From a virus (Duplodnaviria > Heunggongvirae > Uroviricota > Caudoviricetes): 24,457 nucleotides of DNA. The stretch lies in the IMG/VR virus record IMGVR_UViG_3300035208_005614, positions 64,001 through 88,457 of that record; one strand, 5' to 3'. A program made the translations under genes and the position numbers. The notes under the pieces were generated by a model. The model was not told the DNA's origin. It searched no databases and worked only from the letters and a program-made list of their open reading frames with translations. Below, piece after piece: positions 1,563 to 23,816 of this stretch (positions within the stretch are counted from its first letter, which is position 1; each line of letters starts with the position of its first letter).

Positions 1563-1579
1563 ATTATACCTTAGTACTA
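1563..1579 (-). promoter_or_regulatory. Variant of the TAGGACTRTG-N-TAnnnT promoter element
   Basis: Minus strand TAGTACTAAG-G-TATAAT, 9 nt before the ATG at 1553. Confidence 0.55.
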
Positions 1580-1583
1580 TTAA

Positions 1584-4469
1584 TTAGTAAACTAAAATGA
1601 ACTGTTTAATCATAACTGATGTCCCTGGGTTCGTTACCCATGTAGGAGTGACCCAGTTAAATTCAATATAATCACCTTCAGTTACGGCTATGCTAAGCCC
1701 TGTTACTTTAAAAGAAGCAGCATTGACATCGTTGTGAAATGTATTCAATATAACATTATTACCTCCAGCATTAACTTTAAGATTTATTGTTGATGCTTCA
1801 TTCGTAGGTCGTGTCCCTGAATAATAATTATCAAAAATAATGGTTCTTATCGTTCCTGTCTTCAACATTCTATATCTATAAAAACCAGCGCTTGTGCCTA
1901 CAGTAAAACCATTTGATCCAAAATAATAAGTAGTCGCATCAGCAGGTGTAGCAATAGTACTATAACCTTGGTAAACCTGAGTAGCTGGTCCTGTTGGTGG
2001 GTTTGTATATTCTATATCTGTAAACCATCCTTTTGTAACCCTATTTGTCGTATCTCCAATATCTCCATCAATTCTTACTTCTCCATCATCAACCCATACA
2101 GCAAAATTATCTGTTCCTCCAACCATTGCATTTTCAATATAAAGAGTAGAAGTATTTGTGACAGTTGCTGCTCCATTAGTTACAGTTTGAGGTTTAATCG
2201 CTGCTGTTGCAATCATAGGGTGTGTTCCAGAACTTGCTTCAGTAATTGTTCCTGATCCTATTAAGAATTTAGAATAAGAATAATTTGCAGCAAGTGTTCC
2301 AACTGTTCCAGCATTAACTCCTAAAGAATAACTTGTATTAGATGCTCCGTTTAATTGCATTCCAGCGGCTGCACTTGTATAAGTTCCAGTTGAAGAACCG
2401 ACATTAACTGCATAAGGAATATTCATGTAGCTAGAACCATTTATAATTCCAGATGAAGTTATCGTTAAAAGAGATCCAGAATTTGTTGGATAAGCTCCTT
2501 TTTGGAGTCTAATTCCTTCTCCAGATCCTGTTTCAATGTTAACCCATGTATACCAGTTATATGCAGCATTGGCTGGCATTAATTCTAAAGCCCCAGAATT
2601 CGTATTATCTCCTCCTATCTTTAAAAATCCTCCTTGAAGTGTTGGATTACCTGTAAAAGCAGCAGATTCTAATGGTGCATAACCTGACACATCTGGGATA
2701 TCACTTGTCACAGCTATAGTTCCATCTTTATCTGGTATAGTTAAAGATCTGGCTAATGAAAGTCCAGAGGAATCTAAAATCACTCCATAATCACCAGCTA
2801 CACTACCGATAAGAAGTTGGCCTACCCCTACTCCAGATAATTCAACATCATCTAATGTTACAGTTGCTCCACCACTCATTATTATATTATTACCACTCAT
2901 ATCTAAATCATTTACAGAACCAGTATAAGGAACATACAAATCTAAATCAGAAGTTAAAGCAATAGTTCCTGTTTTATTAGGAAATGTAAATATTTGATTA
3001 GAACTTACTTGAGAAATATCTAAAGTAGCATCTCCACCTAAAGGATTCATAAGATAAATATTTCCAATATTATTACTATCATCATATCCAGGTTGTAAAT
3101 AAATTGAACCTGGAAGACCAGATGATGAGTAACCTCCATATAGCCAGACCTGGCCACCTTGACCAGTAGTTCCATCTCCACCTACAATCTCAATATCTTC
3201 TCCAAAACCGTTTGGATTTAATACATCTTCTTGGTTTGCACCAACAATTGACATATTTGTTCCTAATGAACTGATATTTGAACCACCTTCAAATATCAGA
3301 GAATTAAGTCCTAAATTAACATTTGAAGTAGCTCCAGTATAAGGAACAAGTGTTGAAAGGTCTGATATCAAAGCAATCGTTCCTCCTGTAGTATTTGGTA
3401 ATATAAAAGTGTTAATAATGTCAGATTCTACCCCACCAAATAAACTTAAATCAAAATTAGCAACTCTACGATATGGTAAATCATTTAAATATTCAATATC
3501 TAAAAATCCTCTATCTGCATTACCCGTTCCTGCCGTTAACCCTCCATTACCCCCTGCAATTACATCAGTCATTGTTATAGCTGGACTTACTACACCAGGT
3601 TGACCAACTGTATATGGGACAAAATTAGATATATCTGATGTTAAAGCAAAAGTTCCTGTTCCGTTTGGAAAAGTAAAAGTTTGATCAGAGGATAATAAAG
3701 AAATATCAAATAAAGCATTATATTGAAAATCATTTACGGTGTCTACACTTGCTGTTGCTCCACCCATTGTAAGGTTATAAGTTGTTCCAGCAACATATCC
3801 AGTTCCACCACTTCCTAAATGACTCGTTAAAATTCCACCGTTTTCATCAACAGTGTCAACCACTATTCCTCCATTATCTCCACCTCCCATAAAACCTGGA
3901 CCTTCTCCTCCAGTAAAACCTGTTCCTGGGTTAATTATTGTATAAGTAGCAATTTCTCCTAAAATTGTTCTTTGAAAAGTACTTACAGGAACATAACTAG
4001 AAAGATTTGAAGTTAAAGCAATTGTTCCCGTAGCGTCAGGAAAATAAAAAATACGAGGAACGGTCAGGTCCCTGATATTAAGTAATGCTCCTTTTGCTCC
4101 TGAAATACCATTCCCTATATAATTTACATCAGTAAGAAATACAACGTCACCATATGCTGGAGTGTTATTATTATTACTTCCTATAACAGGAATTGTATAA
4201 CCACTTCCACTCGCAAGAGGGACTCCTCCGTTAAAAGAAACATAACCTGTTTTATTTACATCTCCTACAAAACCGTGTCCGTTGTCTCCATATGAAAAAA
4301 ACTCATGATTTTCTATATAAACATCTCCATTTTTCATATCAACTCCACCCGAACTATTAACCACAACTGATTGTTCTGGCGCCGCATCATCATTGGCAAA
4401 GACTCTATGCGAAAATGCATGATCTGGTATATTCAATGGATCTGTTCCTGTTGGTAATTGTACTGTCAT
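1584..4469 (-). CDS. Modular tail/head fibre (receptor-binding) protein
   Basis: 961 aa, G/T/S/N-rich beta-structure composition, five linker repeats, beta-sandwich-like C-terminal domain, position next to lysis genes. Confidence 0.8.
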   Translation of the reverse strand: MTVQLPTGTDPLNIPDHAFSHRVFANDDAAPEQSVVVNSSGGVDMKNGDVYIENHEFFSYGDNGHGFVGDVNKTGYVSFNGGVPLASGSGYTIPVIGSNNNNTPAYGDVVFLTDVNYIGNGISGAKGALLNIRDLTVPRIFYFPDATGTIALTSNLSSYVPVSTFQRTILGEIATYTIINPGTGFTGGEGPGFMGGGDNGGIVVDTVDENGGILTSHLGSGGTGYVAGTTYNLTMGGATASVDTVNDFQYNALFDISLLSSDQTFTFPNGTGTFALTSDISNFVPYTVGQPGVVSPAITMTDVIAGGNGGLTAGTGNADRGFLDIEYLNDLPYRRVANFDLSLFGGVESDIINTFILPNTTGGTIALISDLSTLVPYTGATSNVNLGLNSLIFEGGSNISSLGTNMSIVGANQEDVLNPNGFGEDIEIVGGDGTTGQGGQVWLYGGYSSSGLPGSIYLQPGYDDSNNIGNIYLMNPLGGDATLDISQVSSNQIFTFPNKTGTIALTSDLDLYVPYTGSVNDLDMSGNNIIMSGGATVTLDDVELSGVGVGQLLIGSVAGDYGVILDSSGLSLARSLTIPDKDGTIAVTSDIPDVSGYAPLESAAFTGNPTLQGGFLKIGGDNTNSGALELMPANAAYNWYTWVNIETGSGEGIRLQKGAYPTNSGSLLTITSSGIINGSSYMNIPYAVNVGSSTGTYTSAAAGMQLNGASNTSYSLGVNAGTVGTLAANYSYSKFLIGSGTITEASSGTHPMIATAAIKPQTVTNGAATVTNTSTLYIENAMVGGTDNFAVWVDDGEVRIDGDIGDTTNRVTKGWFTDIEYTNPPTGPATQVYQGYSTIATPADATTYYFGSNGFTVGTSAGFYRYRMLKTGTIRTIIFDNYYSGTRPTNEASTINLKVNAGGNNVILNTFHNDVNAASFKVTGLSIAVTEGDYIEFNWVTPTWVTNPGTSVMIKQFILVY
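2675..4050 (-). repeat. Five dispersed protein repeats (F/I/L)P(D/N)x(T/D)G(G)T(I/F)A(L/V)xS(D/N)...(V/A)P within the fibre
   Basis: FPDATGTIALTSNLSSYVP, FPNGTGTFALTSDISNFVP, LPNTTGGTIALISDLSTLVP, FPNKTGTIALTSDLDLYVP, IPDKDGTIAVTSDIPDVSGYAP near 4020, 3645, 3375, 2955 and 2710. Confidence 0.85.
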
Positions 4470-4478
4470 ATTTTAAAA

Positions 4479-4727
4479 TTATAATTGGCCTGGACCAACT
4501 GATCTCCCCGCAACTTTGTCATGCACATTTATTTCTAATATAGAAGGATCTTTTTCTTTGACTTCTTCTTTAACGACCTCTTGGGTAGGAACGTTAGTTT
4601 TAAATTCAAAAGAAATATCTTTCCCTGGAAGAATATCTTCTCCAGCTATTTGCACTCCGTCTAGATACAACTTACCCTTACTAAAGAGAAGTTTATGTGT
4701 TTGTCCATCATTTAAATTATTATTCAT
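4479..4727 (-). CDS. Small hypothetical protein (82 aa) upstream of the fibre
   Basis: ORF track; directly follows an exact promoter element and fills the gap before the fibre gene. Confidence 0.65.
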   Translation of the reverse strand: MNNNLNDGQTHKLLFSKGKLYLDGVQIAGEDILPGKDISFEFKTNVPTQEVVKEEVKEKDPSILEINVHDKVAGRSVGPGQL

Positions 4728-4733
4728 TCCTAT

Positions 4734-4750
4734 ATTTTATCACAGTCCTA
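4734..4750 (-). promoter_or_regulatory. TAGGACTRTG-N-TAnnnT promoter element
   Basis: TAGGACTGTG-A-TAAAAT, 6 nt before the ATG at 4727. Confidence 0.8.
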
Positions 4751-4755
4751 GACAT

Positions 4756-4785
4756 AAAAAAATACCTCATTTCTGAGGTATTTTT
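4756..4785 (-). terminator. Rho-independent terminator after the glycosyltransferase gene
   Basis: Minus strand ATACCTCA-GAAA-TGAGGTAT followed by a T run; the A/T flanks make it potentially bidirectional. Confidence 0.85.
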
Positions 4786-4791
4786 AGTATA

Positions 4792-5736
4792 TTACTTGAT
4801 TTCCTTAGGTTTAACTCCTTTAACTGGAGCATTGTGTCTTGGAACACCTCCTAATGGATACATTCTACCCGCGTTATCAATATGTTGCACTAAGATATTT
4901 GTATCTACCAAGAATGGATATTTCATCTTCTGGAATTTAGGCCATCCTGCTTTTACGAAGATATTATCTCTCATAACTCTTTTACAGAAATTAAGATCTG
5001 TTGTTCCTCTTGTATAAGCGAATCTAGCACTACCTTCTGTATCTTCAGGTTTGTTGTCAAATCCCATATTACCTTTATTAAAGTTAGGTAATTCGAACAC
5101 TTTTCTAGTGACTTGTCCACCTATTGTGTATTCTTCACTTTCGTTCCAAATAGCTTTAATTATAGATCCATGGATAAGAGTAAAACCGAAAGGTATTCCA
5201 TCTGCCCAAACCTTATCTCCTAGTTTGAAGTCTCTAAAAGATCCATTACCTCTTCCTCTATACAAAATAGGTTCTGGAGGTACTGATTTTGTGTAGTAAA
5301 GACCAGAAATTATCGGTATTTTAGCTGAAGTCATGTACTCATTTAGTCTCACAAAAGCGTCTTGTGGAATGACATTATCTTGTTCTATTGACAAAAACCA
5401 CTCAAAATCACCTTCTACGACAGTCTTTGCAATCAAGTTCTCAGCATCTGGGAGTTGATATTCTATCGGTGCATATGTGTTTAACCACTGAATCATCTCT
5501 ACCTGAGACCAGTTTGTGGGTATAATCTGCCCATATTTGGCCATTACCCACTCAATTCTACACAAACCAGTACTTGGAACAGCTATAAGGATTCTATTCG
5601 TCCAGACCCCGTTTTTTGAGTCTGGGTTCTTGTCACATTCATGTCTTATTTGACCCTGAAGTGAATAATCGCTTCTTTGTTTCTTAACAGGGACGTTTTT
5701 GGTCAAATTATGACCTAGATTATTGATTTTTTTCAT
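4792..5736 (-). CDS. GT-A fold glycosyltransferase (GT2/Anp1-like) with atypical motifs
   Basis: RILIAVPS, EWFLSIEQDNVIPQDAF (DxD position), PIISGLYYTK, DGIPFGFTLIH, TTDLNFCKRV, VDTNILVQHID. Confidence 0.75.
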   Translation of the reverse strand: MKKINNLGHNLTKNVPVKKQRSDYSLQGQIRHECDKNPDSKNGVWTNRILIAVPSTGLCRIEWVMAKYGQIIPTNWSQVEMIQWLNTYAPIEYQLPDAENLIAKTVVEGDFEWFLSIEQDNVIPQDAFVRLNEYMTSAKIPIISGLYYTKSVPPEPILYRGRGNGSFRDFKLGDKVWADGIPFGFTLIHGSIIKAIWNESEEYTIGGQVTRKVFELPNFNKGNMGFDNKPEDTEGSARFAYTRGTTDLNFCKRVMRDNIFVKAGWPKFQKMKYPFLVDTNILVQHIDNAGRMYPLGGVPRHNAPVKGVKPKEIK

Positions 5737-5737
5737 A

Positions 5738-6319
5738 TTATTTAGTTAATTTAGTGTGTTTCTTTAAATCAGACAAATAATCTACATCAACTGCGTGTTC
5801 TTTAGTTATTTCTCTTTTTACAAGGACAACTTCAATATTTCCATCAGTATGCCATGTATTAATTTTGATTCTCCAAGGAAGAGGTGAATATACTCTATAT
5901 AAACCGCCTTTGTAAAAATTATCTTCTGGGTCAAAATATGACCAAGTTTCCTCGTTAATAAAATTAACGTGAGTTGGATCCCTAAACATACCCATTGAAG
6001 TAGCATAAGGAGCCCCGATGATAAATTCCCCACCTGGTTTTAGTATTCTCCAAACTTCATTCATAAACTTTATAAAAATTCCATGTGATGGGTTTATGTG
6101 TTCGATCACATGAGTTGAAACTGCTGTATTAAATGTTTCTGATGGGATTGCCCATGGGAAAACTTCCAAATCTTGTACTAAATCTACTCCTGGCAATTTT
6201 CTGTAATCTATTCCAAACCAATTCTCACCTTGTTTATTTCCACCGCATCCTATGTCAACGTATGACATTTTTCTTTTAGCGATGATCTTTTTCATTTCAT
6301 CCAATTTTTTCATATTCAT
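5738..6319 (-). CDS. Class I SAM-dependent methyltransferase (type 11-like)
   Basis: YVDIGCGG motif I, THVIEH, EVWRILKPGG, RDPTH. An alternative start is possible at 6313. Confidence 0.85.
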   Translation of the reverse strand: MNMKKLDEMKKIIAKRKMSYVDIGCGGNKQGENWFGIDYRKLPGVDLVQDLEVFPWAIPSETFNTAVSTHVIEHINPSHGIFIKFMNEVWRILKPGGEFIIGAPYATSMGMFRDPTHVNFINEETWSYFDPEDNFYKGGLYRVYSPLPWRIKINTWHTDGNIEVVLVKREITKEHAVDVDYLSDLKKHTKLTK

Positions 6320-6340
6320 ATATAAAATTAACTAATAAAA

Positions 6341-6386
6341 TACACCTACTATTAGTAAGTGTACTTTATTGCTTTTCACATGTCAA
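6341..6386 (-). promoter_or_regulatory. Sigma70-type promoter with overlapping 23-bp imperfect palindrome
   Basis: TTGACA (6386-6381), 17 bp spacer, TACACT (6363-6358). Palindrome TACAC-c-TACT-att-AGTA-a-GTGTA at 6341-6363. Confidence 0.75.
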
Positions 6387-6396
6387 GCTATCAAAA

Positions 6397-6894
6397 CTAA
6401 ACGCTTGCGAATCTAATTTGATATGTAGCATTCACGGATTGGTTTGTAGCACATGAAGAAGAAGCGAAGGTATTTCCTGCAAAGAGGGTACCAACGTTTG
6501 TTGTTGATGTGTTATATAGACCGATACATGAGATGTTTGCTGTCGTTGTTACGAAGCTAGCTGCAGATGCAAAAGCACCTGTAAATTGAGCTGTACCTGA
6601 TGCCACAATTGAAGAAGAAACTGCTGCTCTTCCGCTTGTTGAGTGAGTTAATTCACCAATAAGGGCTGTTGCGGCTGCTCCTACTACAGTACCAGTTCCA
6701 AGCGCCATGTAAGTGATGCTCTTTCCTGCTCCTGAAGTTAGCCAGTCAACAATGTACTGTCTAATTCCAAGGTCTGTGACTTGGTTTTGTTGCCATCCTG
6801 AGTCTCCAACTACACCCTTTCCATCTTCGGTAAGTTGAACTCTGAAAAACCCCTTAACCTTCAAGCCATCTGAATGAGATTTATTTTTTGCCAT
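6397..6894 (-). CDS. Putative virion structural protein (fibre/baseplate N-terminal-like small beta protein)
   Basis: QNQVTDLG...YMALGTGT...TALIGEL...R...ISCIGLYN...GTLFA pattern recalled from phage structural genes; A/T/S/G-rich. Confidence 0.5.
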   Translation of the reverse strand: MAKNKSHSDGLKVKGFFRVQLTEDGKGVVGDSGWQQNQVTDLGIRQYIVDWLTSGAGKSITYMALGTGTVVGAAATALIGELTHSTSGRAAVSSSIVASGTAQFTGAFASAASFVTTTANISCIGLYNTSTTNVGTLFAGNTFASSSCATNQSVNATYQIRFASV

Positions 6895-7023
6895 AATTTT
6901 TCTAAAAAGTTCTATTAAAAATACTAATCTAGATTAACATTTTGTCTACAAGTTCGACCTAGTAACCAAAATATTTTATTGAAATATACATATTCATTTT
7001 TTAAATTGTTTTTAACATCTATC

Positions 7024-7029
7024 ATTATA
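7024..7029 (-). promoter_or_regulatory. Possible -10 box just downstream of the terminator
   Basis: TATAAT, about 130 nt upstream of the ATG at 6894; no convincing -35 box. Confidence 0.3.
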
Positions 7030-7039
7030 CAACACATAT

Positions 7040-7072: not shown

Positions 7073-7089
7073 AACTTAAAACATCTAAA

Positions 7090-7944
7090 TTAGTCTCCAA
7101 ATGGTGGATCATATGTTAAATCTTCTGCCATTGATAGGTTATCTACTGTGTTTATTTCACTATCTGATACTGGTGACGTTACTAGATCCTCCGAGATACT
7201 AATTGCATCTACATCTGATATAGGATTAACTGGTAAATTCATAACTACGGCTTCTGAAATAGAAACTGCCTGGACTTGACTATCCGCCTCATCATCTACC
7301 ATCGCAGTAACAATATTCTCTGTTATTCTTACCTTGTCTGATTCTTTAACGATCATCTCAAAACTTGAATCTGCGTTACCCTCACTCATTACAAAACCCT
7401 GAATACCTTTAACTTCAATATAGTCTATAAGCATTAGATCTGGAGCATCTGTAGTTGCATATAAACTCATTGGTGATCCTGGAATCAACTTTACTGGAAC
7501 TCCTAAATTATATGTATCATTAAATACTGCTTTAAATTGTTTATTTATGAAAAATGTTGCTGTTCCAGCTTCCCATTTGATTCTGAATTCTGTGTCTACA
7601 TCGGTCCAATCATCATCCCAATCTATAACTGCTGAGGATGCTATTGTTGTCCCATTTGAACATTCTGCCGTTAACACACCGTCTACTATTTGGAATAAAA
7701 GATATGCGTTTTTATTGTATTGAATAAAACCGAATCTAGAGTTATCCCCCAAGACTGGTTTTGCTATATTGATACTAAAGACAGCATCACCACGAAGAAT
7801 ATCTCCATAATGAATAATGGCTGCTTTTGTTAATTGTAATTGCCCACCAACGATATCTGCGTCTCCGTAAACTAATCTCCAGGTATCTAGGTCAAAACCT
7901 TCTTGGGCTGGATCGTATGTAAAATTAATGTATTGATTTGACAT
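7090..7944 (-). CDS. ConA/LamG-like beta-sandwich protein with acidic C-terminal repeats (paralog of 7965-8531)
   Basis: FRIKWEAGTATFFIN strand pattern typical of ConA-like domains; four repeats of 21-22 aa at the C-terminus. Confidence 0.55.
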   Translation of the reverse strand: MSNQYINFTYDPAQEGFDLDTWRLVYGDADIVGGQLQLTKAAIIHYGDILRGDAVFSINIAKPVLGDNSRFGFIQYNKNAYLLFQIVDGVLTAECSNGTTIASSAVIDWDDDWTDVDTEFRIKWEAGTATFFINKQFKAVFNDTYNLGVPVKLIPGSPMSLYATTDAPDLMLIDYIEVKGIQGFVMSEGNADSSFEMIVKESDKVRITENIVTAMVDDEADSQVQAVSISEAVVMNLPVNPISDVDAISISEDLVTSPVSDSEINTVDNLSMAEDLTYDPPFGD

Positions 7945-7950
7945 GATTAT

Positions 7951-7967
7951 ATCTTAACATAGTCCTA
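7951..7967 (-). promoter_or_regulatory. TAGGACTRTG-N-TAnnnT promoter element
   Basis: TAGGACTATG-T-TAAGAT, 6 nt before the ATG at 7944; its TAG is the stop codon of the upstream gene. Confidence 0.8.
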
Positions 7968-8531
7968 TAGTACTTCTAGGTTTGAACTCTGTATTCCTAA
8001 TACTTCAAAATAATTTAATAATAGAGCACTATTAGCGTTATTAGATAGGTATACGCTCATTGTGTCTCCTGGAATAACAATTGTAGGAACTCCTAGTGAG
8101 AAAGTGTTGCTAAATGTGGCCTTTAATTGACCATTAATATAAAAAGAAGCTATTCCTGGTTCCCATTTGATTCTAAATACTGTGTCTACGTTACTCCAAT
8201 CTGCATCCCAGTCTATTTCCTGTGAATAGACAGTTACACCATCAGAAGATTCTGCTGTCAATACATCATCTACAACCTTAAAAGTAAGATGTGCATCTTT
8301 GTTATGTTCCATAAAACCAAATTGTTTTGCATCCCCTGCCGCTGGTGCATCTATTCCTATACTCATTGAAAGATCTCCCCTTAGAAGATCCGCAAAGTGT
8401 ATAATTTCTGAATTACCTAAACTTAGATGATTTGCAACGACAACAGGAGCGCCTGATAGGGTGCTCCATGTGTTCAAGTCATATCCCTGACGTGTGGGAT
8501 CGTAATAAAAATTGAAGGTTTGGTTGGACAT
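7965..8531 (-). CDS. ConA/LamG-like beta-sandwich protein (paralog of 7090-7944)
   Basis: About 94 of 183 aligned residues identical to the N-terminal part of the neighbour by hand alignment. Confidence 0.55.
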   Translation of the reverse strand: MSNQTFNFYYDPTRQGYDLNTWSTLSGAPVVVANHLSLGNSEIIHFADLLRGDLSMSIGIDAPAAGDAKQFGFMEHNKDAHLTFKVVDDVLTAESSDGVTVYSQEIDWDADWSNVDTVFRIKWEPGIASFYINGQLKATFSNTFSLGVPTIVIPGDTMSVYLSNNANSALLLNYFEVLGIQSSNLEVL

Positions 8532-8558: not shown

Positions 8559-8575
8559 ATATTACCATAGTCCTA
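8559..8575 (-). promoter_or_regulatory. TAGGACTRTG-N-TAnnnT promoter element
   Basis: TAGGACTATG-G-TAATAT, 27 nt before the ATG at 8531. Confidence 0.75.
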
Positions 8576-13541: not shown

Positions 13542-13721
13542 TTATGCTTTGTGAAATCTACTCAATGTTTTAGCCAAAATAGCTCTTTTTTTTGTCTTAG
13601 GGTTGTCGCTTTTTGCTGCTGCATTAAGTTTACTTGCTGGAATTTTCTTTCCTGATGGAACACCTAGCATCTTATGTAGACTTCCTGGGTTTTTTATTGC
13701 GTTTTGTATCCAATTTGCCAT
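13542..13721 (-). CDS. Small basic protein, 59 aa (start re-assigned to MANWIQ)
   Basis: WIQNAIKNPGSLHKMLGVPSGKKIPASKL resembles a small protein I recall from environmental phages. The track start is GTG inside the promoter element, and the ATG at 13721 lies 9 nt after TATAAT. Confidence 0.7.
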   Translation of the reverse strand: MANWIQNAIKNPGSLHKMLGVPSGKKIPASKLNAAAKSDNPKTKKRAILAKTLSRFHKA

Positions 13722-13730
13722 ATATCTTTT

Positions 13731-13747
13731 ATTATAACACACTTCTA
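13731..13747 (-). promoter_or_regulatory. Variant of the TAGGACTRTG-N-TAnnnT promoter element
   Basis: TAGAAGTGTG-T-TATAAT, 9 nt before the ATG at 13721. Confidence 0.65.
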
Positions 13748-15035: not shown

Positions 15036-17195
15036 TTATTTTTTCTTTTTCTGAATGCTTGATGCTTGATTTACCAAAGCACTTTCAGGATTACTATTAA
15101 TACTATGAACGCTTGTGTTTGTATTTACCTTACCAGTTCTATTTGCCCCTCTTGAGTTTGTAGTAGGTAATGGAATTCTTGATGCTGTTGGTGGCATTCC
15201 TCCAGCGTTTAACAAGTTAATTGGAGAAGAAGCCTGTGCCATCGGTGCTGGCGCACTTGCACCTCCTCTTAACATAGCGAGTGCGTTCTGTGCAACGTCT
15301 GATGGAATATTTTTTGTTCCTCCCATTGGAGAAGGTACTTCGGGAACTCCTCCTGCCATTGTTGCCATTGGGTCAGATTCAGGTAATGGTTGTCCATCAG
15401 GACCTGCTGGCACTGGTTGCCCGTCTGGACCTACAGGTTGTCCATCAGGACCCATTGTAGGAGCAGCATCTTCGCTCTTAGCGACTGAATCAATTGACCA
15501 ATTCCAATCTGTAAGTATTTTTTGTGTAAGTTTTTGTGGATCAACGAATGGAAGGTTAATAAGAAGTTGAAATAGATCCATATCTTGTTTCTTTTTAATA
15601 TCTTGTTGTCCAGCAATTGATGGAAGTACTGACGCTTTGTAATCAAACAAACCGCAAAGATCATCTTTTTGTATAATAGGAAACATTTCTTTTCCATCAT
15701 CTCCGATAATTCTAATTGTCATATCTTTAGTAAAGAATTGTCTTTCCATATCCATCCAATATCTCATCAAATCTGAGAATCCATTACCTAAGTGGTTAAC
15801 GAATAATCTAACACGTTCAAGAGTTGATTCTCTAAGGTGTCTAACTTCAGTTGCTGAGTTTGCTCCTCCTCCTGCGCCCATAGAAAAGTCGTCAACACCT
15901 GATGCGTATCTCATATCTGCCTTTAACAAGTCTTCTTCCTTGTAAGCAGAAGCTTTTATGTCGCTAAATTGGACTTCTCTGACTCCATTTGGGTCAACTG
16001 AGTAAATAATACCGAAAGGACGAGTAACAAGTTCCTCTTTATTGATATTTGCAAGTGGATTTACGATCCACATCTTGTGAATTGACAAAGTAGCAGCATC
16101 TAACCTCTGATTTTTGATCATATTCATCATAATTTGAGGATTTTCAAGGATCATTGGAAGACCGTAGCCTTCATATTCACCTGGAACCTTCAAATAAGGG
16201 AAATCTATGTAAGTTGCCTCCTTAAAATCGTAAGGAATTGGTTGCCATCCTCCTTTTAGGATAGGACACCATCCTCCACCTACGTGAACTGAGTAACAAT
16301 CAGCAAAAGGTTGTGTCCATTCGAAAACTTCATACATTTGTAACTCTGGATCACCGAAAGTATTATATTTATCACTACCCCATCCATAAGCAGGGCCGTT
16401 AAATGTGTTTACACCCTTAACTGTGAGGTCTTGATTCTGTTTTACTTGGATTCTTATTGAAGCATAGTCTTGTAAATCACCTCCTGGGTTATTTAAAGCC
16501 AATGCAAGTCTCTCTGGATCTGCACTTGGGTACTTCCTGACGATTTCTGGAGCTGTTAATACAAGTCTTCTAAGCCAATATTGCTTGGATTGCCTTTCTG
16601 TGTTGTGCCAATCGTAGAAAAGAGAGTAGTTATCTACCCATTCTGCACTTGGAGCATCATAAAAAGTCTTTGATTCCTCTTTCCATACATACTTTTTCTT
16701 CAAAAGATCTTGTGTTTTAAGAAATTTTTGTTTTCTAACATCCTTTTTCCAATAAGCCTGAAGATATCCCATCCCGTAAATGAGTGAAGAACGAACTACA
16801 TCCTCTGTGGTCTTGTCCATTTTTGAAATTTCCCATATATAATCACCTAATTGTTGTTGTTTTTCAGCCTTTAATTGGTCATCTGCGGTTCTCCCCTGAA
16901 CACTGAAGTCAGGTCTAGCATCAAGAACACGAGGCATAAGAGTTTCTACTACAGCTTGTACGTAAGGAACGAATATGTTTGATTGCCAAGACTTAATTTG
17001 GAGTTGCCTATCACCGTTATAAGCAATGTATAGTTTATATGATCTATCTAAACGAGGTTTAATAACACGCAAGAAATATTCACGTGAATCCTGCATCTGT
17101 AACATGAATTTAGACTGAAAATTGACCTCCTCTGGCCCATAGTCAGATGGCGTATATGTGTTAAAACGGGTGTATTTATTTAAAATGATTGACAT
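15036..17195 (-). CDS. Portal protein (P22/SU10-like) with a low-complexity C-terminal tail
   Basis: 719 aa directly after TerL; SNIFVPYVQAVVETLMPR, YGMGYLQAYW, MIKNQRLDAATLSIHKMW, YASGVDDFSMG..NSATEV. Confidence 0.88.
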   Translation of the reverse strand: MSIILNKYTRFNTYTPSDYGPEEVNFQSKFMLQMQDSREYFLRVIKPRLDRSYKLYIAYNGDRQLQIKSWQSNIFVPYVQAVVETLMPRVLDARPDFSVQGRTADDQLKAEKQQQLGDYIWEISKMDKTTEDVVRSSLIYGMGYLQAYWKKDVRKQKFLKTQDLLKKKYVWKEESKTFYDAPSAEWVDNYSLFYDWHNTERQSKQYWLRRLVLTAPEIVRKYPSADPERLALALNNPGGDLQDYASIRIQVKQNQDLTVKGVNTFNGPAYGWGSDKYNTFGDPELQMYEVFEWTQPFADCYSVHVGGGWCPILKGGWQPIPYDFKEATYIDFPYLKVPGEYEGYGLPMILENPQIMMNMIKNQRLDAATLSIHKMWIVNPLANINKEELVTRPFGIIYSVDPNGVREVQFSDIKASAYKEEDLLKADMRYASGVDDFSMGAGGGANSATEVRHLRESTLERVRLFVNHLGNGFSDLMRYWMDMERQFFTKDMTIRIIGDDGKEMFPIIQKDDLCGLFDYKASVLPSIAGQQDIKKKQDMDLFQLLINLPFVDPQKLTQKILTDWNWSIDSVAKSEDAAPTMGPDGQPVGPDGQPVPAGPDGQPLPESDPMATMAGGVPEVPSPMGGTKNIPSDVAQNALAMLRGGASAPAPMAQASSPINLLNAGGMPPTASRIPLPTTNSRGANRTGKVNTNTSVHSINSNPESALVNQASSIQKKKK
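15388..15452 (-). repeat. Three GPDGQP repeats in the portal tail
   Basis: ggttgtccatcaggacc at 15388-15404 and 15436-15452; ggttgcccgtctggacc at 15415-15431. Confidence 0.85.
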
Positions 17196-17204: not shown

Positions 17205-17221
17205 ATAATATCATAGTCCTA
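17205..17221 (-). promoter_or_regulatory. TAGGACTRTG-N-TAnnnT promoter element
   Basis: TAGGACTATG-A-TATTAT, 9 nt before the portal ATG at 17195. Confidence 0.8.
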
Positions 17222-17222
17222 C

Positions 17223-18662
17223 TTAATAACCAACGGAGGGCAAATGATTAGCGTAATTAATCTGATCCATCTTCTTATCAGAGATGACTTTAAAACCTTG
17301 TAAAGCAATCGCAGTGGCAAAGATACAGTCATCGTGATAAGAATCCATAGCCACCATATTGTTAGCATCATTAAAAATAAACACCGTCATTTCATCAACT
17401 GTTTCCTTACTATGTAACGTAATATTGTCCTCACGCGTCATCTGTTCGAATTCATCGATTAAAATTGGTCTTGTTAATTTTGTTGTTTTCCAACCTAACT
17501 TATCAGACCATGGGTTACCGATTGTGTCAAAACGTGCAGGTCTAAAATATAAAGATGGGTATAACAATTGTTTAAGAATATTAAGAACAACGTTACCGTG
17601 AGCTTCAGCTTCAACAACCATCAATGCATTATTATATTTTCTTCCCCACTTATCCAAAACTTTTGCAAATTTATCTGGTGCTATATGACCTCTCCACATA
17701 GCAACTTCTTCTCCAGTCATTCTGTCTAAAATAGTTGCAACTGCATAGTCTCCTCCTGATACACCTTCAGAACAGTCTGCTCCTAATACATAAAAATGTC
17801 CTTTCTCTGCAGGTCTGTAAATTCTAAAACCTTCTTCTTCTCTGACCATATGTTCTGATCCATCTTCCATCTTAACTTTATCTCCTACCTTCCAAACTCT
17901 ACTTCTTTGTAATGCAATTGTTTCTTGTGTAAAAACAGATCTACCTGAAATAAGAAATTCCAAAGCATAGTTGTTGTTGAACTGACGAGGGTTATTCATT
18001 CTTCTTCTAATCGTTTCAATTTCTTGCTCTGTATAATTCCACCACCAACCATATTCTTTTTTAATATAATCGTTTTCAGAAACCCACATTCTATGGAAGT
18101 AATCTCCCACAGCTCCAGGTGATGACTCAATAACAATCTTTCCATTAACTGGAACAGAAGCTTCAAGAGTAACAAGTTTTTCTTCTGCTTTATCCCAGAA
18201 AGGCACCTCAGTTAAAAGTGCATAATTGATTGTGTATCCTCTTCCTACGTTTTCTGTAGAAGGAAGAACAAGAATTTTTGAGTCTGCCTTAGGGAATGAA
18301 ATTTCAAACTTAGAGTTGTAATGGATCGTAGGTCTAATTGCATCAGGAGTTGTTCTATAAAATGTTTTAATTTTATCTAGAAGTTCAGCAGTAAGGTCGT
18401 TGTTGTATCCAACAATTGCTGTTGTAACTCCAGGGGTTGTAATTGTTTTATGATAAAAGAATCCAGTAACCGCAGTACTAAAACCAATCTGTCTAGCCTT
18501 CATAATAATAATACGATTGTTTCTTTGTATAACATTAAAAATATCCAACTGCGCAGGTTTAAGAATAAAGGGCTCTAACCCCTTACCTTCTTTTCCTTTA
18601 ATCTTACAAAAATTTTCTAAGTAAAATCTTGGATCTGCTAATTTTTCAACGGGGTTACTCAT
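17223..18662 (-). CDS. terL: Terminase large subunit
   Basis: IIIMKARQIGFST (Walker A), YALLTE (Walker B), IVIESSPG (coupling motif), YVLGADCSEG and HDDCIFATAIA (RNase H-like nuclease). Confidence 0.93.
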   Translation of the reverse strand: MSNPVEKLADPRFYLENFCKIKGKEGKGLEPFILKPAQLDIFNVIQRNNRIIIMKARQIGFSTAVTGFFYHKTITTPGVTTAIVGYNNDLTAELLDKIKTFYRTTPDAIRPTIHYNSKFEISFPKADSKILVLPSTENVGRGYTINYALLTEVPFWDKAEEKLVTLEASVPVNGKIVIESSPGAVGDYFHRMWVSENDYIKKEYGWWWNYTEQEIETIRRRMNNPRQFNNNYALEFLISGRSVFTQETIALQRSRVWKVGDKVKMEDGSEHMVREEEGFRIYRPAEKGHFYVLGADCSEGVSGGDYAVATILDRMTGEEVAMWRGHIAPDKFAKVLDKWGRKYNNALMVVEAEAHGNVVLNILKQLLYPSLYFRPARFDTIGNPWSDKLGWKTTKLTRPILIDEFEQMTREDNITLHSKETVDEMTVFIFNDANNMVAMDSYHDDCIFATAIALQGFKVISDKKMDQINYANHLPSVGY

Positions 18663-19173
18663 AAAGTCCTTTTGTTTCTTTATTTGCTTTCTCTTTTGCC
18701 AACCTAATATGTTCTGGCATCTCAGGTTCTACAACTTCATATTCAGCAATTTTAATCTTGTCTGGTTCCTTACCTTCAGTGGTGCTAGTTAATTTCAATA
18801 GAGTTTCTTCCCATCCTCCTCCTCCTATTGCCGTCTCTTCATACTTATCCAAACCAATAGATTTTAAAATCATATTAAGACCCGCCAATCTATCTGCTGA
18901 TTTATCTGCATTATCTATCTCAGATTTAATTCCCTTAACGACGTACTCAAAAGTAATACCCTCTTTCGCTAAAGCGTTGTGATATTCTTTTCTCATCGCA
19001 ATTTTATCAAGTGTTCTATAAACCTCAGCTACTGTTTTTACACCAATAAGTTCCTTAAGTTTTTTAGGATCTTGAGTAATATGCAAAGCTTTAAGCAACA
19101 TAATTTGTTGTGTTGTGTTCTGAGCATTATAGGCATATTTACCTTGTACAAAAATTACTGGTTTATCTTTCAT
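18655..19173 (-). CDS. terS: Terminase small subunit (putative)
   Basis: Overlaps the TerL start; N-terminal HTH-like segment; GITFEYVVKGIK...ADRLAGLNMILK oligomerisation-like helices. Confidence 0.6.
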   Translation of the reverse strand: MKDKPVIFVQGKYAYNAQNTTQQIMLLKALHITQDPKKLKELIGVKTVAEVYRTLDKIAMRKEYHNALAKEGITFEYVVKGIKSEIDNADKSADRLAGLNMILKSIGLDKYEETAIGGGGWEETLLKLTSTTEGKEPDKIKIAEYEVVEPEMPEHIRLAKEKANKETKGLYE

Positions 19174-19843
19174 GTTTTTTCTTTCTATTATTAACTCTCA
19201 ATGGCTTATCTGTATCTCTAACATAAAATGGAACGTCTCTATCCATGTTGTGTCTAATCTGATATTTGTCTCTGCCTAATTCATCATTGATTGAGTAAAC
19301 ATAATTTATTACGTAATCTAAAAACACGGCGAAAGTCATCTTTTTTTTGTCTGCTTCTTTAAGTAAATCTACACGATCTTCAAGCTGTGAAACTACAATT
19401 AAATAATCCATTGTAATATTCTTAAATGGAAACTTATAGTAATTAGGATTGGTAAAAGGATTGCCGTCCATGAATCCTGGGAAGAGTTCATCAAAATATG
19501 ATTCTATTTTTGAAAAGAATTTAGATTTTGTAATAATCTGTATATCTTTTCCTATATTTCTTCTAACTAATTTTGTAAAAGCCAACCCTGTAAGAAGAGA
19601 ATTCTTATACATAGGAAGAGTTGTTTTGCTTCCATAATAAGTAAACTTCCTTCTAAGCCAAGAAAGTTTAACTGTATAATTAAAAAGATTTAAATATGCT
19701 TCATCTAAAAAGTCATGAAAAAGAGAAATATAACTATTGATTGTCATGTCTTCAATAGTGATAGCAGCTAAATTTAGTTTAGTTCTACTTGATTTTCTAT
19801 CTATAGAAAATACTTTCTCATATACTTGGGGTAGGTGTTTCAT
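19163..19843 (-). CDS. Hypothetical helical protein upstream of terS (start uncertain: 19843 or 19747)
   Basis: ORF track, 226 aa, overlaps both neighbours; basic C-terminus. Confidence 0.65.
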   Translation of the reverse strand: MKHLPQVYEKVFSIDRKSSRTKLNLAAITIEDMTINSYISLFHDFLDEAYLNLFNYTVKLSWLRRKFTYYGSKTTLPMYKNSLLTGLAFTKLVRRNIGKDIQIITKSKFFSKIESYFDELFPGFMDGNPFTNPNYYKFPFKNITMDYLIVVSQLEDRVDLLKEADKKKMTFAVFLDYVINYVYSINDELGRDKYQIRHNMDRDVPFYVRDTDKPLRVNNRKKKHER

Positions 19844-20330
19844 TAGGATTTATATTCATATTATTTGTAGGCACTGCATCTGCACTAGGTTCTGCAACTG
19901 GTGCACCAGCTGTGTCTGATGGTTGTGGTTGTTGAGAATCATCAGCCATGATCATATTTAAAATCTGTACAACTTCTTTATATACATCAGGTTGAGTCTG
20001 TTGTAATTTTGCTAAGAAGGTTTTAACTTGATCTGGATTTGTAGGATCTATTCCATTCTTTTGGAAGAAATCATAAACCTCAGAAAAAAGTTGACTCTTA
20101 CTTTCTTGAGAAATTTTATTAACGTCAAACATACTTGTATCAAGTTCTTGTTTCTTCGCTTGAATTTTATCCATCATTGCTTTTAGATTTCCTTTCATTT
20201 CGTCCTGAGATAATTCAGGTTGAACTGAAGTTGGATCTGCTGGTGAATCAGGTACTGGTGGATTCATCGAAGGATTCTCACTTATTGGTGGAATTCCTGC
20301 AGGTGATTGTGGTTCTTGTGGTGTAATCAT
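19818..20330 (-). CDS. Acidic Pro/Gln-rich hypothetical protein with a helical core
   Basis: ORF track, 170 aa; preceded by a sigma70-type promoter. Confidence 0.7.
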   Translation of the reverse strand: MITPQEPQSPAGIPPISENPSMNPPVPDSPADPTSVQPELSQDEMKGNLKAMMDKIQAKKQELDTSMFDVNKISQESKSQLFSEVYDFFQKNGIDPTNPDQVKTFLAKLQQTQPDVYKEVVQILNMIMADDSQQPQPSDTAGAPVAEPSADAVPTNNMNINPNETPTPSI

Positions 20331-20363
20331 TTCTTTTTTCTATTAATTAATAATCTTTATGTA

Positions 20364-20393
20364 AGTATACCATGACATATAATATCTTGGCAA
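20364..20393 (-). promoter_or_regulatory. Sigma70-type promoter with extended -10
   Basis: TTGCCA (20393-20388), 18 bp spacer ending TG-G, TATACT (20369-20364). Confidence 0.65.
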
Positions 20394-20395
20394 CC

Positions 20396-23300
20396 TTATT
20401 TTTTTGTGCTCAAATCTTTTGTTGAAATATTTGTTGTGTCTAGGGTATAAAGTGGAATACCTGTTCTTCCTGCTAATGATCTTAAGGTCTTTCTAACAGC
20501 ATCTTCTTTAGTCATTGCACCGATAGAACTTCTTCCTTCTGCAGCGTTAGCCACACTTCTTGCTCCATAGCTTGGTATCAAGTTAATAATATCAGGAGAC
20601 ACATTTGCCATACCTAATGGAAGACCAGCGTAACTTGCTACTCCTGGGACAACAGCTTCGCCTAATGTTCTTCCTGCATATAACAATTTTGTTAAAGCAC
20701 TAGCATCAATAAGATTTCCTTTCTCATCATAAGTAGGATAAAGAGGTTGACCGAATTGTCCTTGTGGAGCTTCTCCTGTACCCGAAAGAATCCATGGTTG
20801 GATCCAATAATCTTTTAATACCTGACCTACTGGTGTTTGGAACAGTGGAATATTATCAGACATCTTCAAAAGATTTCCCTGTGGGGTATCAGAGTAACTC
20901 TTTTCTGATGGATTAAACATGTTCATTCCGTAAATAGGAATCATGTTTTTAACGTCAGTATTCCACATACCCATAATCTTAACCACAGTTGGTGAATCTA
21001 GATATTGATTATATTTATTTTGCATCGCAATCTTCTCTTCTGGTGATCTCGTTCCTGTGATTTCATTCAACATAAAACCGATCTTATTGAAAGATGAAAG
21101 ATTATTTATTGCTGTCTTCGCACTCTTTATAGCCATAGCATATTGGAAAGAATAAAAGTTACTTCCAGCAATAGGAAGAGCTCTCATTATCTTTACAAAG
21201 TCAGGCATAGCAGCATAGTTCATATAAGTTTCCATAGCCACCTCTGACGCTTTTAGCGGTTTAAGTCTATATAGTTTTTGTCCGTTTTTAATTATAGGTT
21301 CCAATATATCTTCTGGTGAGAATGGAACAGTTCTACTAAGTGTTATAAGTTGTTGTTCTGTCAATCCTATTCTAGACATATAATCTACTGATCCAACTTT
21401 GAAAGTTTGGTCAATATGTTCATACCATTTAGGCATAGAGTTGATTACTTTATCTGCTACAAAATACATAGGATTGTTTGGATGTGCCTTTGCATTTTCA
21501 GCAATGATTGATTTTGTCTTATCAAAAAGATTTGCATTTAATTCTTCTGTTGTAAATGTTCCTCCTCTCTCTGCTTCTGTAAGAGTTCCTTCTTTCAATT
21601 TCTTCATTACTGATTCAGATGCAGTAGGGAAAGCTCCCATCTTTTCTTGCATTGCCTTCTTCTCAATTTTTGACATACCTGCCTCTGCCTCTGCTCCTTT
21701 CTCAACCCTTCCTTTTAGAGATGAGATATTACCTTCTTTCGCCATGATCTTAGCAACCTCTTCTTCAGAAGCCATTGCTTCCTCAAAAGCTTTTTGCATA
21801 TAGTCTCTTACGTCAACCATTTTAGTTGGAATAACGCCAGCGATTTTATCTTCAACAGAAATCTTTCCTACAATTTCTGATGGATCAAAGCCGAACAACT
21901 GTCTGAATCTTGTAGGATTTTCATCTGCCATAGTTATCAAAAGATTTGTATCGTTAAAGAACATTTCTTTGATACCTGTGATTCCTAATTTTCCACTCAA
22001 TAGTTTTTTTGCATTCATCAAAGAGTTCATATATTCAGGTTCCCAAACTGGAAGTCCCATCATCGCGCCCATGAAAAAGTTACCTACGTTTGCGACTACG
22101 TGAGATCCAACGTTATAAGGAACCTTCATTGCTTTAAACAAAGATGTAAATTTTTCCAATCCAGTTAAAGCACCTTCAAAGGGTTTCCATTGTCCTGGAT
22201 TTATATTAGCAATCTTACCAGCAACTCCATTGATTGTGTTCCAAGTTTTTATAGTTTCATCAGCTCCTTCTTGCACTGCCTTTTCTATATTGGCAGGTTC
22301 CATTCCTAATTTACCTTTTACAAAATTAGCAATATCACTAAAGGTTGTTGCCTTTGCTTTATCAATTACATCGTCATACCACTGTACTCCAGTCTTTCCT
22401 GGTTCGACTCTCTGATAAACCTTAGCCAAATGATCAAGATTAACCTGATCCATTGCAGTTCCTAGAAGTGATTTAGCATTTTCTATGGTGTTTGCCACCT
22501 TTATCTGTCCATGTAACTCAGGAATTATTGCTCCTGTTACCTGATCTCGTATTAAAATATTACCTGCTGTATCTGCCTTATCAACGACAGTGTCTGCTAT
22601 TCTTTTTGTAAGACTATCAATATTAACCGTAGCATCCTTTGCTAAAGCTTCGTTTATATCTAAAAAGTTCAATCCTTCGGTGGCATGAGTCAATTTAAGG
22701 CCTGTATCCTTACCTAAATTGGTGATTTGGTCCTTTAAATCAGCGATTCTAGCTGCATCTGAGGGTGAATACTTGAAAAACTTGACAATATCTTCTCCAG
22801 ATGGCATTGCTTTACCTAAAATACTAACGGAAGGTACCTTGTTTACTAAATCTTCCACTGTTTTTCCTATAATTCCAGTAGGTTGACCGAACATTCCCTT
22901 GTTTATCTTGCTATAAACGTCAGTTCCCATCAAAGTATCGTACTTTTCAGCTCCTGCAATAGCCTTTTCACCTAGTTTTGAGGCCGTTTCAGTGACTCCA
23001 GTACCTGTTTTTTGTAGTAAATTACGCCATTTATCGCCTAAAGTAAGCCCTTCTTGACCTGCTTCTCTTGCCATTTCCTCTGTAACAGGTGTTAATTTAG
23101 ACCATGTTTTGACCATAGGAATCATATTTAGAGCCGATGTTGCCTTCTGGGCGAGGTTAGAAGTGAGTCCTGTAACTCCTGTATCAACTGCTTTGCCTAT
23201 ATCAAAACCAGTAATAGCAGCTTTTGTACCAGCTTCAACAGCGCCTCTTTCAATTCCACCCTTAATTAGACCCATTCCTACACGAGGAACAAGCGCGGAT

Positions 23301-23791
23301 GTTCCCATTGTTAGCCAGTTAACAGGATCCAATGCGATATCAAGAGCAAATCCTAGAGGAGCAGATATTAATCTATTCGTAACTCCTTCTTGATTTAGAA
23401 CATTACCGAAAGTAAGCCCCGTCTTCATGGCTTCATTTACGTTACTTGCAAGGGTTGGAGAAGTTCCTTTACCTAATGCGTATTGTGCTGTACCAGCGAT
23501 TGCATTAAGAGGTTTCTGTATAGCTTTCAATCCACTCATCCACCAAGAATCTTTAGGTGCTGAAACTGCAGTTGTGTCTCCAGATGTTTGATCCGCTTTT
23601 CCATACCAAGTATTGCGAAGGTTTGTGCTCTTCGCATCTTCTATTTGTTTCTTAACTGAGGCAAGTTGAATCGCCAAGTTTGCATCTTTGTAAGTAGGAA
23701 CTGTATTCGGTGTATACGCAGTATTAGACCCCTGTAGTTGAGAGGTTATAGAACTCGCTTTATTTTGTAAGGCTTCTAAAGGTGTGGCCAT
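20396..23791 (-). CDS. Large internal virion / DNA ejection protein (putative)
   Basis: 1131 aa, A/G/K/T-rich, helical, with the hydrophobic LGFALDIALDPVNWLTMG segment typical of podoviral core proteins. Confidence 0.6.
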   Translation of the reverse strand: MATPLEALQNKASSITSQLQGSNTAYTPNTVPTYKDANLAIQLASVKKQIEDAKSTNLRNTWYGKADQTSGDTTAVSAPKDSWWMSGLKAIQKPLNAIAGTAQYALGKGTSPTLASNVNEAMKTGLTFGNVLNQEGVTNRLISAPLGFALDIALDPVNWLTMGTSALVPRVGMGLIKGGIERGAVEAGTKAAITGFDIGKAVDTGVTGLTSNLAQKATSALNMIPMVKTWSKLTPVTEEMAREAGQEGLTLGDKWRNLLQKTGTGVTETASKLGEKAIAGAEKYDTLMGTDVYSKINKGMFGQPTGIIGKTVEDLVNKVPSVSILGKAMPSGEDIVKFFKYSPSDAARIADLKDQITNLGKDTGLKLTHATEGLNFLDINEALAKDATVNIDSLTKRIADTVVDKADTAGNILIRDQVTGAIIPELHGQIKVANTIENAKSLLGTAMDQVNLDHLAKVYQRVEPGKTGVQWYDDVIDKAKATTFSDIANFVKGKLGMEPANIEKAVQEGADETIKTWNTINGVAGKIANINPGQWKPFEGALTGLEKFTSLFKAMKVPYNVGSHVVANVGNFFMGAMMGLPVWEPEYMNSLMNAKKLLSGKLGITGIKEMFFNDTNLLITMADENPTRFRQLFGFDPSEIVGKISVEDKIAGVIPTKMVDVRDYMQKAFEEAMASEEEVAKIMAKEGNISSLKGRVEKGAEAEAGMSKIEKKAMQEKMGAFPTASESVMKKLKEGTLTEAERGGTFTTEELNANLFDKTKSIIAENAKAHPNNPMYFVADKVINSMPKWYEHIDQTFKVGSVDYMSRIGLTEQQLITLSRTVPFSPEDILEPIIKNGQKLYRLKPLKASEVAMETYMNYAAMPDFVKIMRALPIAGSNFYSFQYAMAIKSAKTAINNLSSFNKIGFMLNEITGTRSPEEKIAMQNKYNQYLDSPTVVKIMGMWNTDVKNMIPIYGMNMFNPSEKSYSDTPQGNLLKMSDNIPLFQTPVGQVLKDYWIQPWILSGTGEAPQGQFGQPLYPTYDEKGNLIDASALTKLLYAGRTLGEAVVPGVASYAGLPLGMANVSPDIINLIPSYGARSVANAAEGRSSIGAMTKEDAVRKTLRSLAGRTGIPLYTLDTTNISTKDLSTKK

Positions 23792-23799
23792 ATTAAGTT

Positions 23800-23816
23800 A
23801 TTCTATCACAGTCCTA
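23800..23816 (-). promoter_or_regulatory. TAGGACTRTG-N-TAnnnT promoter element embedded in the last codons of the HU-like gene
   Basis: TAGGACTGTG-A-TAGAAT, 8 nt before the ATG at 23791; overlaps CTA GGA CTG TGA. Confidence 0.8.

Follow-up and report, generated by a model that had tools for sequence, protein, structure and literature searches.

A predicted class of -35-independent promoters with a conserved spacer box in a family of uncultured tailed phages

RESULTS AND DISCUSSION

A boxed extended -10 motif recurs at gene starts

We have analyzed a stretch of 24,457 nucleotides (the window) from IMG/VR record IMGVR_UViG_3300035208_005614, a Caudoviricetes phage genome of 101,237 bp rated complete in that database, of which the window comprises bases 64001-88457. 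The window carries repeated copies of the sequence TAGGACTRTG, each followed after one base by a hexamer resembling a -10 element. This motif almost certainly defines a promoter class in which a short box, GKACT (GGACT or GTACT), placed just upstream of an extended -10 element, stands in for the -35 element. The sites are probably -35-independent promoters of an RNA polymerase of the sigma-70 family, that is, the host enzyme with its primary sigma factor. That the motif marks a class of promoters had been proposed from the window sequence (hereafter, the original prediction), and the proposal was supported by the restriction of the sites to the gene strand, their location at gene heads and after terminators, and the retention of orthologous positions in related phages.

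The 10-mer TAGGACTRTG was found five times in the window (4741-50, 7958-67, 8566-75, 17212-21 and 23807-16), against 0.11 copies expected, and none of 100 shuffled sequences contained at least five copies. All copies were on the minus strand, which is the strand of all window genes, and at gene boundaries, exactly where the original prediction had located them. The -10-like hexamer that it had noted one base after each copy was equally recovered in the five cases (TAAAAT, TAAGAT, TAATAT, TATTAT and TAGAAT, general form TAnnAT). In the whole genome, the exact 17-mer was present six times, always on the minus strand and in gene orientation, with no match for the reversed control. The 101-kb genome held ~14 sites, each of them co-oriented with the gene block around it. 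Generic -35/-10 matches were no more common in the window (61) than in shuffled sequences (69.8), which leaves the boxed motif as its only strong transcription signal.

To describe the motif, we have counted the hexamer as positions -12 to -7. With this numbering, TAnnAT corresponds to the -10 element, T-R-T-G spans -17 to -14 with the TG at -15/-14, and the box lies at -21 to -17 in the close clade of relatives and at -22 to -18 in the distant clade. The box is thus located in the spacer, nearer to the -10 element than the MotA box of phage T4, as had been stated originally. The alignment of 69 non-redundant sites revealed nearly invariant positions at G3, A5, C6, T7, T9 and G10 and at the T-A...A-T of the hexamer, and an information content of ~0 at all positions over the 40 nt upstream of the box. 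As nothing was conserved over these 40 nt, the sites have neither a -35 nor an UP-like element, in agreement with the earlier description of an extended -10 with a conserved element in place of the -35 box. The conserved stretch was no longer than ~24 nt.

The near-invariance of the motif positions is partly circular, because the sites were picked with the matrix. As a check on this circularity, we have used three site selections made without the box or without the TG. Among TAnn[AT]T hexamers located 6-9 nt before the ATG of an open reading frame (ORF) of at least 60 codons, 24 of 33 had GKACT spaced by 4 nt, and each of the other spacings accounted for 1-3 cases. Of 71 matches to box plus hexamer that were picked regardless of the TG, 45 had a co-oriented gene start no more than 100 nt downstream, in zones that make up 7% of strand positions. 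The TG at -15/-14 accompanied 40 of the 45 box-plus-hexamer sites near gene starts, compared to 6 of the 26 located elsewhere. The third selection, the orthologues of the portal site, is taken up below with the related phages.

Terminators, -10 hexamers and translation context

Of 119 sites, 12 had a terminator-like hairpin with a T run no more than 70 nt upstream, as opposed to 0.9% of random positions, an ~11-fold difference. We have also compared the hexamers of boxed sites with those of TGnTAnnAT sites that lie near gene starts but lack the box. In the close clade, the hexamer was a perfect TATAAT in 12 of 62 boxed sites versus 47 of 103 box-less sites (Fisher p = 7e-4), meaning that boxed sites of this clade statistically tolerate weaker -10 hexamers. 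Box-less TRTGnTATAAT sites located 6-9 nt before an ATG were common in the relatives, which suggests that the extended -10 is the general currency of these phages and that the box is an added element.

An A was present at the seventh base past the hexamer with a frequency of 0.83 in sites adjacent to an ATG and of 0.59 in leadered sites, where a T precedes it. An A at this distance, if used as the start, would conform to the usual geometry of sigma-70-type promoters. The ATG was found 6-9 nt past the hexamer in 36 of 142 non-redundant sites. Shine-Dalgarno-like motifs preceded only 7-11 of 125 genes, a near-absence with which the predicted leaderless mRNAs would fit, and the 10 bases before the ATG were A-rich (78% A at -6, 66-67% at -3 and -2). 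Primary-sigma promoters of Bacteroidota are characterized by a -7 element, TAnnTTTG, and by TTTG near -33. The TAnnTTTG element was found in none of the 125 genes at -20 to -4, and in 7 of the 125 within 100 nt.

The motif is kept in related phages

A portal search of IMG/VR provided 80 related loci (portal identity of 55-84%). When a position weight matrix derived from the sites of this genome was run on these loci, 79 matches were co-oriented with the genes and 11 were in the opposite orientation. The motif was seen at orthologous gene heads, including those of the portal gene, the gene for an 1131-aa protein, a pair of genes whose products begin with MSNQ and the gene for a DUF5659 protein, among others, and the sequences flanking it had diverged. 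Orthologues of the portal site retained the box even where the TG was lost, as in GGGACTTTAGTATAAT and GTACTATAGTATAAT.

We have also scanned the whole records of ten long relatives. The first scan distinguished carriers, with 8-9 strict matches each (none in the control), from apparent non-carriers. The orthologous upstream regions of the latter turned out to contain the same elements with one extra base, in the form GGACT-T-RTG-n-TATAAT or TATACT. Rescanning in the 4-nt register yielded 9-12 sites per genome in the close clade (clade 1 genomes G000, G002, G001 and G010), and the 5-nt register yielded 8 sites in each of the distant complete genomes G006 and G007, with 1-2 expected from shuffles in both cases. 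The motif was clade-wide. Weaker motif sets (GTACTT and GGATTT) were found in two further genomes, again with 1-2 sites expected from shuffles. In the distant clade, the leaders were of 20-60 nt, and hence these genes would not be leaderless. Gene-content profiling of carriers versus non-carriers was dropped, since the distant genomes were found to carry the motif in the shifted register.

The DUF5659 protein (91 aa, genome 16468-16743, plus strand) is encoded by the best-conserved small early gene; its identity in six relatives ranges from 46 to 79%, and in every relative the gene directly follows a predicted boxed extended -10 promoter. The original prediction had suggested a late promoter class preceding virion and lysis genes. 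The virion genes are indeed downstream of the motif; lysis genes could not be confirmed there, and one copy heads the DUF5659/replication-initiator operon in all relatives. The location of this copy indicates that the class is not purely late, a label that would derive from gene content only.

The scan of IMG/VR with GGACTTATGNTATAAT returned 83 stretches, those outside the phage family holding just 1-2 copies. Two copies of GGACTT[AG]TGTTATAAT were observed ahead of genes in an unrelated 139-kb IMG/VR contig that uses Shine-Dalgarno sites; they may result from chance, or point to activity of the box in other hosts.

Sites of the window and of the whole genome

All predicted sites of the window are on the minus strand. 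The boxed promoter at 4734..4750 (TAGGACTGTG-A-TAAAAT) has the ATG of an 82-aa ORF (4479-4727) 6 nt past its hexamer, predicting a leaderless mRNA for this ORF. A hairpin with a T run, resembling an intrinsic terminator (4758..4785, minus strand), ends ~7 nt short of this promoter (position 4750) and would mark a transcription-unit boundary. Further along, the adjacent minus-strand genes 7090-7944 and 7965-8531 encode paralogues of 284 and 188 aa that both begin with MSNQ, each with its own predicted boxed promoter, and this arrangement with separate promoters is retained in close relatives. The site of the 284-aa ORF (7951..7967, TAGGACTATG-T-TAAGAT) lies with its hexamer 6 nt from the ATG, and the TAG at 7965-67 in its box doubles as the stop codon of ORF 7965-8531. 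The site of the 188-aa ORF (8559..8575, TAGGACTATG-G-TAATAT) is followed by a leader of 27 nt.

The predicted promoter at 17205..17221 (TAGGACTATG-A-TATTAT) is located between the large terminase and portal genes, its 10-mer starting 1 nt past the terminase stop codon and the portal ATG (17195) lying 9 nt past the hexamer; its position is kept in many relatives. The site at 23800..23816 (TAGGACTGTG-A-TAGAAT), also kept in relatives, has the ATG of the 1131-aa ORF (20396-23791) 8 nt past the hexamer and overlaps the TGA stop codon (23806-08) of ORF 23806-24099. Two copies thus overlap upstream coding ends, as had been reported. The two variants with a perfect TATAAT corresponded as well to their earlier description. 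The one at 1563..1579 (TAGTACTAAG-G-TATAAT) has a GTACT box and lacks the TG, and the ATG of a 109-aa ORF (1224-1553) follows 9 nt past its hexamer. The one at 13731..13747 (TAGAAGTGTG-T-TATAAT) combines a degenerate box with the TG and lies, by the same count of 9 nt, upstream of the ATG at 13721 (59-aa ORF, 13542-13721). Overall, six of the seven window sites have a hexamer-to-ATG gap of 6-9 nt, the exception being the 27-nt leader of the 188-aa ORF.

Outside the window, variant sites were found at genome positions 61594, 44437, 60533, 62221 and 5224 (all on the minus strand) and at 16420 (plus strand). The genome-wide gaps between hexamer and ATG were 6-9 nt at 8 sites, 27-31 nt at 4, and 68 and 82 nt at the remaining 2.

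A second putative class, cTTGACAAGTA-N7-AGGAGTATACTTA, has a canonical -35/-10 layout with a 16-nt spacer and TATACT. Its five copies are in the replication and takeover region, outside the window, at genome positions 8071, 11727 and ~16395 (minus strand) and 20828 and 24140 (plus strand). The phage therefore appears to have two promoter classes, TTGACA-N16-TATACT for replication and takeover genes and the boxed extended -10 for virion genes and the DUF5659/replication-initiator operon.

Candidates for the box reader and for the host

Several phages encode their own sigma factors, such as T4 gp55, SPO1 gp28/34 and phiEco32 gp36. The original prediction had considered a phage activator or sigma factor as the reader of the box, and our searches identified none. 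In a six-frame search of the phage genome, sigma-70 region 2 (PF04542) gave no match at E <= 1, whereas the control genomes gave matches, and the search with PF08281 returned only an 11-bit match inside an exonuclease gene. A T7-like polymerase (PF00940) was not matched, though the controls gave no match either. Pfam scans of the large proteins revealed no RNA_pol domain, and phmmer comparison of the giant protein with PDB revealed no polymerase. No transcription factor was recognized when the giant, early and promoter-proximal proteins were scanned with Pfam and PHROGs, and the MotA/AsiA families were absent from the matches of the early proteins.

The only sigma-region-4-like protein is a 147-aa product (genome 29512-29955, plus strand). 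Its helix-turn-helix resembles sigma-70 region 4, with a Pfam match (E = 9e-4) that stays below the cut-off of the family, and the protein also contains a Cys cluster. We rejected it as the box reader, since seven relatives yielded no homologue, even with E relaxed to 10; being confined to this genome among the eight compared, it cannot account for a clade-wide motif. A double C4 zinc-ribbon protein (genome 31300-31650, plus strand) is encoded at the end of the early block, adjoining the 2390-aa gene, and is present in all complete relatives. The predicted folds of the DUF5659 and double zinc-ribbon proteins had no PDB match at E <= 0.001.

The best matches of the phage RecA (49%) were from Ignavibacteriales and Bacteroidota metagenome-assembled genomes (MAGs), one of which is AT-rich and poor in Shine-Dalgarno sites. 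These matches hint at an AT-rich, Shine-Dalgarno-poor bacterium of the FCB group as a candidate host. Using the peptide deformylase for a host look-up retrieved only viral clusters. Kinship with crAss-like phages was not supported: the capsid and terminase had only remote relatives (<30%) among cultured phages, a DFDxD motif was absent, the giant proteins matched no PDB sequence, and the promoters of phage phi14:2 are of another type.

Comparison with known promoter systems

The sequence TRTG-n-TAnnAT is a described feature of primary-sigma promoters, the extended -10 or "-16 region." Like the Gram-positive extended -10 promoters (TRTG-n-TATAAT), the phage sites have the TG one base before TAnnAT, mostly after T-R, no -35 element, and an A 7 nt past the hexamer; unlike them, they add a nearly invariant G-K-A-C directly upstream of TRTG, and many abut the ATG. 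To call the motif unlike any described system would thus be an overstatement, the more so as the box occupies the position of the Z-element (PMC3173786) and as Thermus phages are known to have late promoters of the extended -10 kind with leaderless mRNAs (PMC7403470, PMC3594737).

Yuzenkova et al. (2011, PMC3173786) showed that the Z-element, located 4 bp upstream of the -10 element, makes contact with the beta' zipper and can take over the role of the -35 element. It was defined on two T7 promoters, with its consensus left open, and a natural "-10/Z" class was predicted (PMC3173786). The promoter spacer at -19 to -32 is near the beta' zipper (PMC3950348). The phage box shares with the Z-element its length of 5 bp, its place in the spacer (about -22 to -18, with 4 bp left before the hexamer) and, as we propose, its role as a -35 stand-in. 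The Z-element sequences (AACCT, AACAT and AATGT) are loose and have modest effects (<2-fold), whereas the phage box, GGACT or GTACT, is almost invariant. It also differs from the Z-element in that its register shifts by 1 bp between clades. A dependence of the phage box on the zipper and an ability to replace the -35 element may be hinted at, indirectly, by the lack of a -35 element and by the compensation between box and -10 hexamer.

In Thermus phage P23-45, displacement of sigma region 4 by gp39 moves transcription from -35/-10 promoters to the extended -10 middle and late promoters (PMC7403470). In the related phage phiYS40, most middle and late mRNAs are leaderless (PMC3594737), and leaderless expression from a -10 element that abuts the ORF has been documented (PMC12340547). 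The phage studied here resembles P23-45 and phiYS40 in having extended -10 sites without a -35 element for late genes, -35/-10 promoters for others, and many late mRNAs predicted to be leaderless. By analogy, a phage with a -35/-10 replication class and a boxed virion class would fit the Thermus switch scheme well. The Thermus phages differ in their host phylum and lineage; no conserved spacer box is described for them in the literature considered, and a gp39-like factor was not found here. T4 middle promoters (MotA/AsiA) also have a phage-specific upstream box that replaces the -35 element before a normal -10, but the MotA box is centred near -30 and the phage box at -21 to -17, and no MotA/AsiA relatives were detected. 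Finally, the crAss-like Cellulophaga phage phi14:2, which has a virion polymerase, is likewise a ~100-kb phage with a repeated host-type promoter motif at virion genes, but its sites, upstream of g070, g075, g108, g092 and g093, correspond to the Bacteroidota form TTG(C/A)...TAnnTTTG, near-absent here. Searching the literature by the motif sequence string retrieved primers only.

A possible mechanism and its alternatives

Taking the sites as promoters of the host enzyme, we propose that the sigma-70-family holoenzyme recognizes TAnnAT together with the TRTG of the extended -10, and that the GKAC(T) box, 4-5 bp upstream of the hexamer, provides an additional contact that would replace the one between sigma region 4 and the -35 element. 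Transcription would start at the A located 7 nt past the hexamer, which at some sites could be the A of the ATG, giving rise to leaderless mRNA. We infer the RNA starts, the host polymerase as the enzyme and the nature of the box reader from the sequence. The reader is quite possibly a phage-encoded factor bound to the polymerase, as in a switch of the gp39 or AsiA-MotA kind. The finding that the motif is dense only in this phage family may lean toward such a phage-borne reader. Possibly, instead, the box is read directly by the host enzyme, through the beta' zipper or Zn finger or through sigma region 3.

Several points weigh against this mechanism as a whole. The start positions are predictions from sequence geometry, and recognition by a host sigma is suggested only by likeness to TRTGnTATAAT. 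Some of the motif statistics depend on sites chosen by the motif itself. The compensation between box and -10 that the original prediction had suspected, supported in the close clade, did not extend to the distant clade, in which TATAAT is already present at 9 of 10 boxed sites. Across 401 genomes from the phylum to which the best RecA hit belongs, the pattern was in no excess over its reversed control, and unrelated viral contigs showed no excess either, so that it does not serve as a common type of promoter in these groups. Five candidate host genomes gave no motif excess as well. No phage factor for the box emerged from the profile, homology and fold searches. The box, GGACT/GTACT, differs from the published Z-element AACCT/AACAT; a nearly invariant box, as compared with a loose Z-element of <2-fold effects, would be better explained by a dedicated sequence-specific reader.

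We have considered whether the motif could be a promoter of the phage's own polymerase, with the giant 2390-aa virion protein as the candidate and the likeness to an extended -10 being coincidental. In its outline, TA-GACT-3/4 nt-TATA, the motif resembles T7-type promoters. The 2390-aa gene is kept in all relatives, and the motif is lineage-specific, dense in the phage family and without excess in the 401 bacterial genomes or in unrelated viral contigs. Phage two-barrel polymerases do use short private promoter motifs (PMC10770324), and one copy of the motif heads an early-looking operon in every relative; known phage virion polymerases, however, transcribe early rather than virion genes (10.1101/2020.03.07.982082). 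The consensus moreover coincides with the textbook TRTG-n-TATAAT, with the TG precisely one base from the hexamer, the start-site A would obey the sigma-70 geometry, and box-less TRTGnTATAAT sites serve other genes of the same genomes. Together with the lack of a T7-like polymerase match and of a polymerase among the PDB comparisons of the giant protein, this makes a phage polymerase unlikely.

The box could alternatively be the operator of a phage repressor or timer that overlaps the spacer of ordinary extended -10 promoters, without acting as a positive element. A near-invariant box would suit a sequence-specific protein, the phage encodes small DNA-binding proteins, including MerR-like and zinc-ribbon proteins, and the GTACT form yields an 8-bp palindrome (TAGTACTA). 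The commoner GGACT form and the GGACTT of the whole distant clade are not palindromic, no second half-site is present, and the register between box and hexamer is fixed at 4 or 5 nt. The -10 hexamers are also weaker at boxed than at box-less sites, which would be anticipated for a box that aids polymerase binding, and we regard an operator as quite unlikely. The motif could also act at the RNA level, in processing or translation, or be a repeat used for recombination or packaging, which would agree with the location of the sites near start codons, partly overlapping upstream coding ends. Such a role is highly unlikely, given that the gap before the ATG is variable (6 to 68 nt, and 82 nt at one site) while the register to TAnnAT is fixed; the sites also follow terminators, are strand-specific and always at gene heads, and their conservation stops at ~24 nt, which argues against a longer repeat.

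Returning to promoters of the host polymerase, we tentatively propose that GKACT is a new, strongly sequence-specific -35 substitute 4-5 bp upstream of the -10 element, read by a phage factor riding the host polymerase or by the polymerase core, and linked with leaderless translation in a host that makes no use of Shine-Dalgarno sites. If the reader were a phage factor, it would represent a new kind of substitute for sigma region 4; if it were the polymerase core, the phage sites would constitute the first "-10/Z" promoter class from nature, and a highly conserved one. Little is understood about promoter elements between -10 and -35, and this clade supplies dozens of natural boxed promoters as templates, with useful traits such as a near-invariant 5-bp box, no -35 element, a 1-bp register difference between subclades and a measurable -10 compensation. 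The motif also yields an operon map for a phage lineage without a cultured member, and points to a two-class promoter switch resembling that of Thermus phages. With the predicted mRNAs, systematic leaderless expression would gain an example beyond the phyla known for it.

Other features of the phage and of the window

The phage genome has a G+C content of 34% and 15 tRNA genes, and encodes GroEL/GroES, RecA, RtcB and peptide deformylase, as well as two giant proteins of 2390 and 2680 residues. Among the window genes are those encoding the large terminase, portal and major head protein. In 50,697 records of cultured phages, the relatives of the capsid and terminase were all distant (<30%). The phage DNA was detected in groundwater and landfill metagenomes. 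As to RNA, no dataset match was listed for 10 kb of the window, and for the capsid gene one metatranscriptome contained 5% of its words, as contigs only, which cannot resolve starts. A run of 10 N is present at genome 88458-88467, immediately beyond the window end. At window 6334-6386 (minus strand), a TTGACA-17-TACACT match overlaps a hairpin with a 17-bp stem ahead of a methyltransferase gene (5738-6319), a signal distinct from the boxed class.

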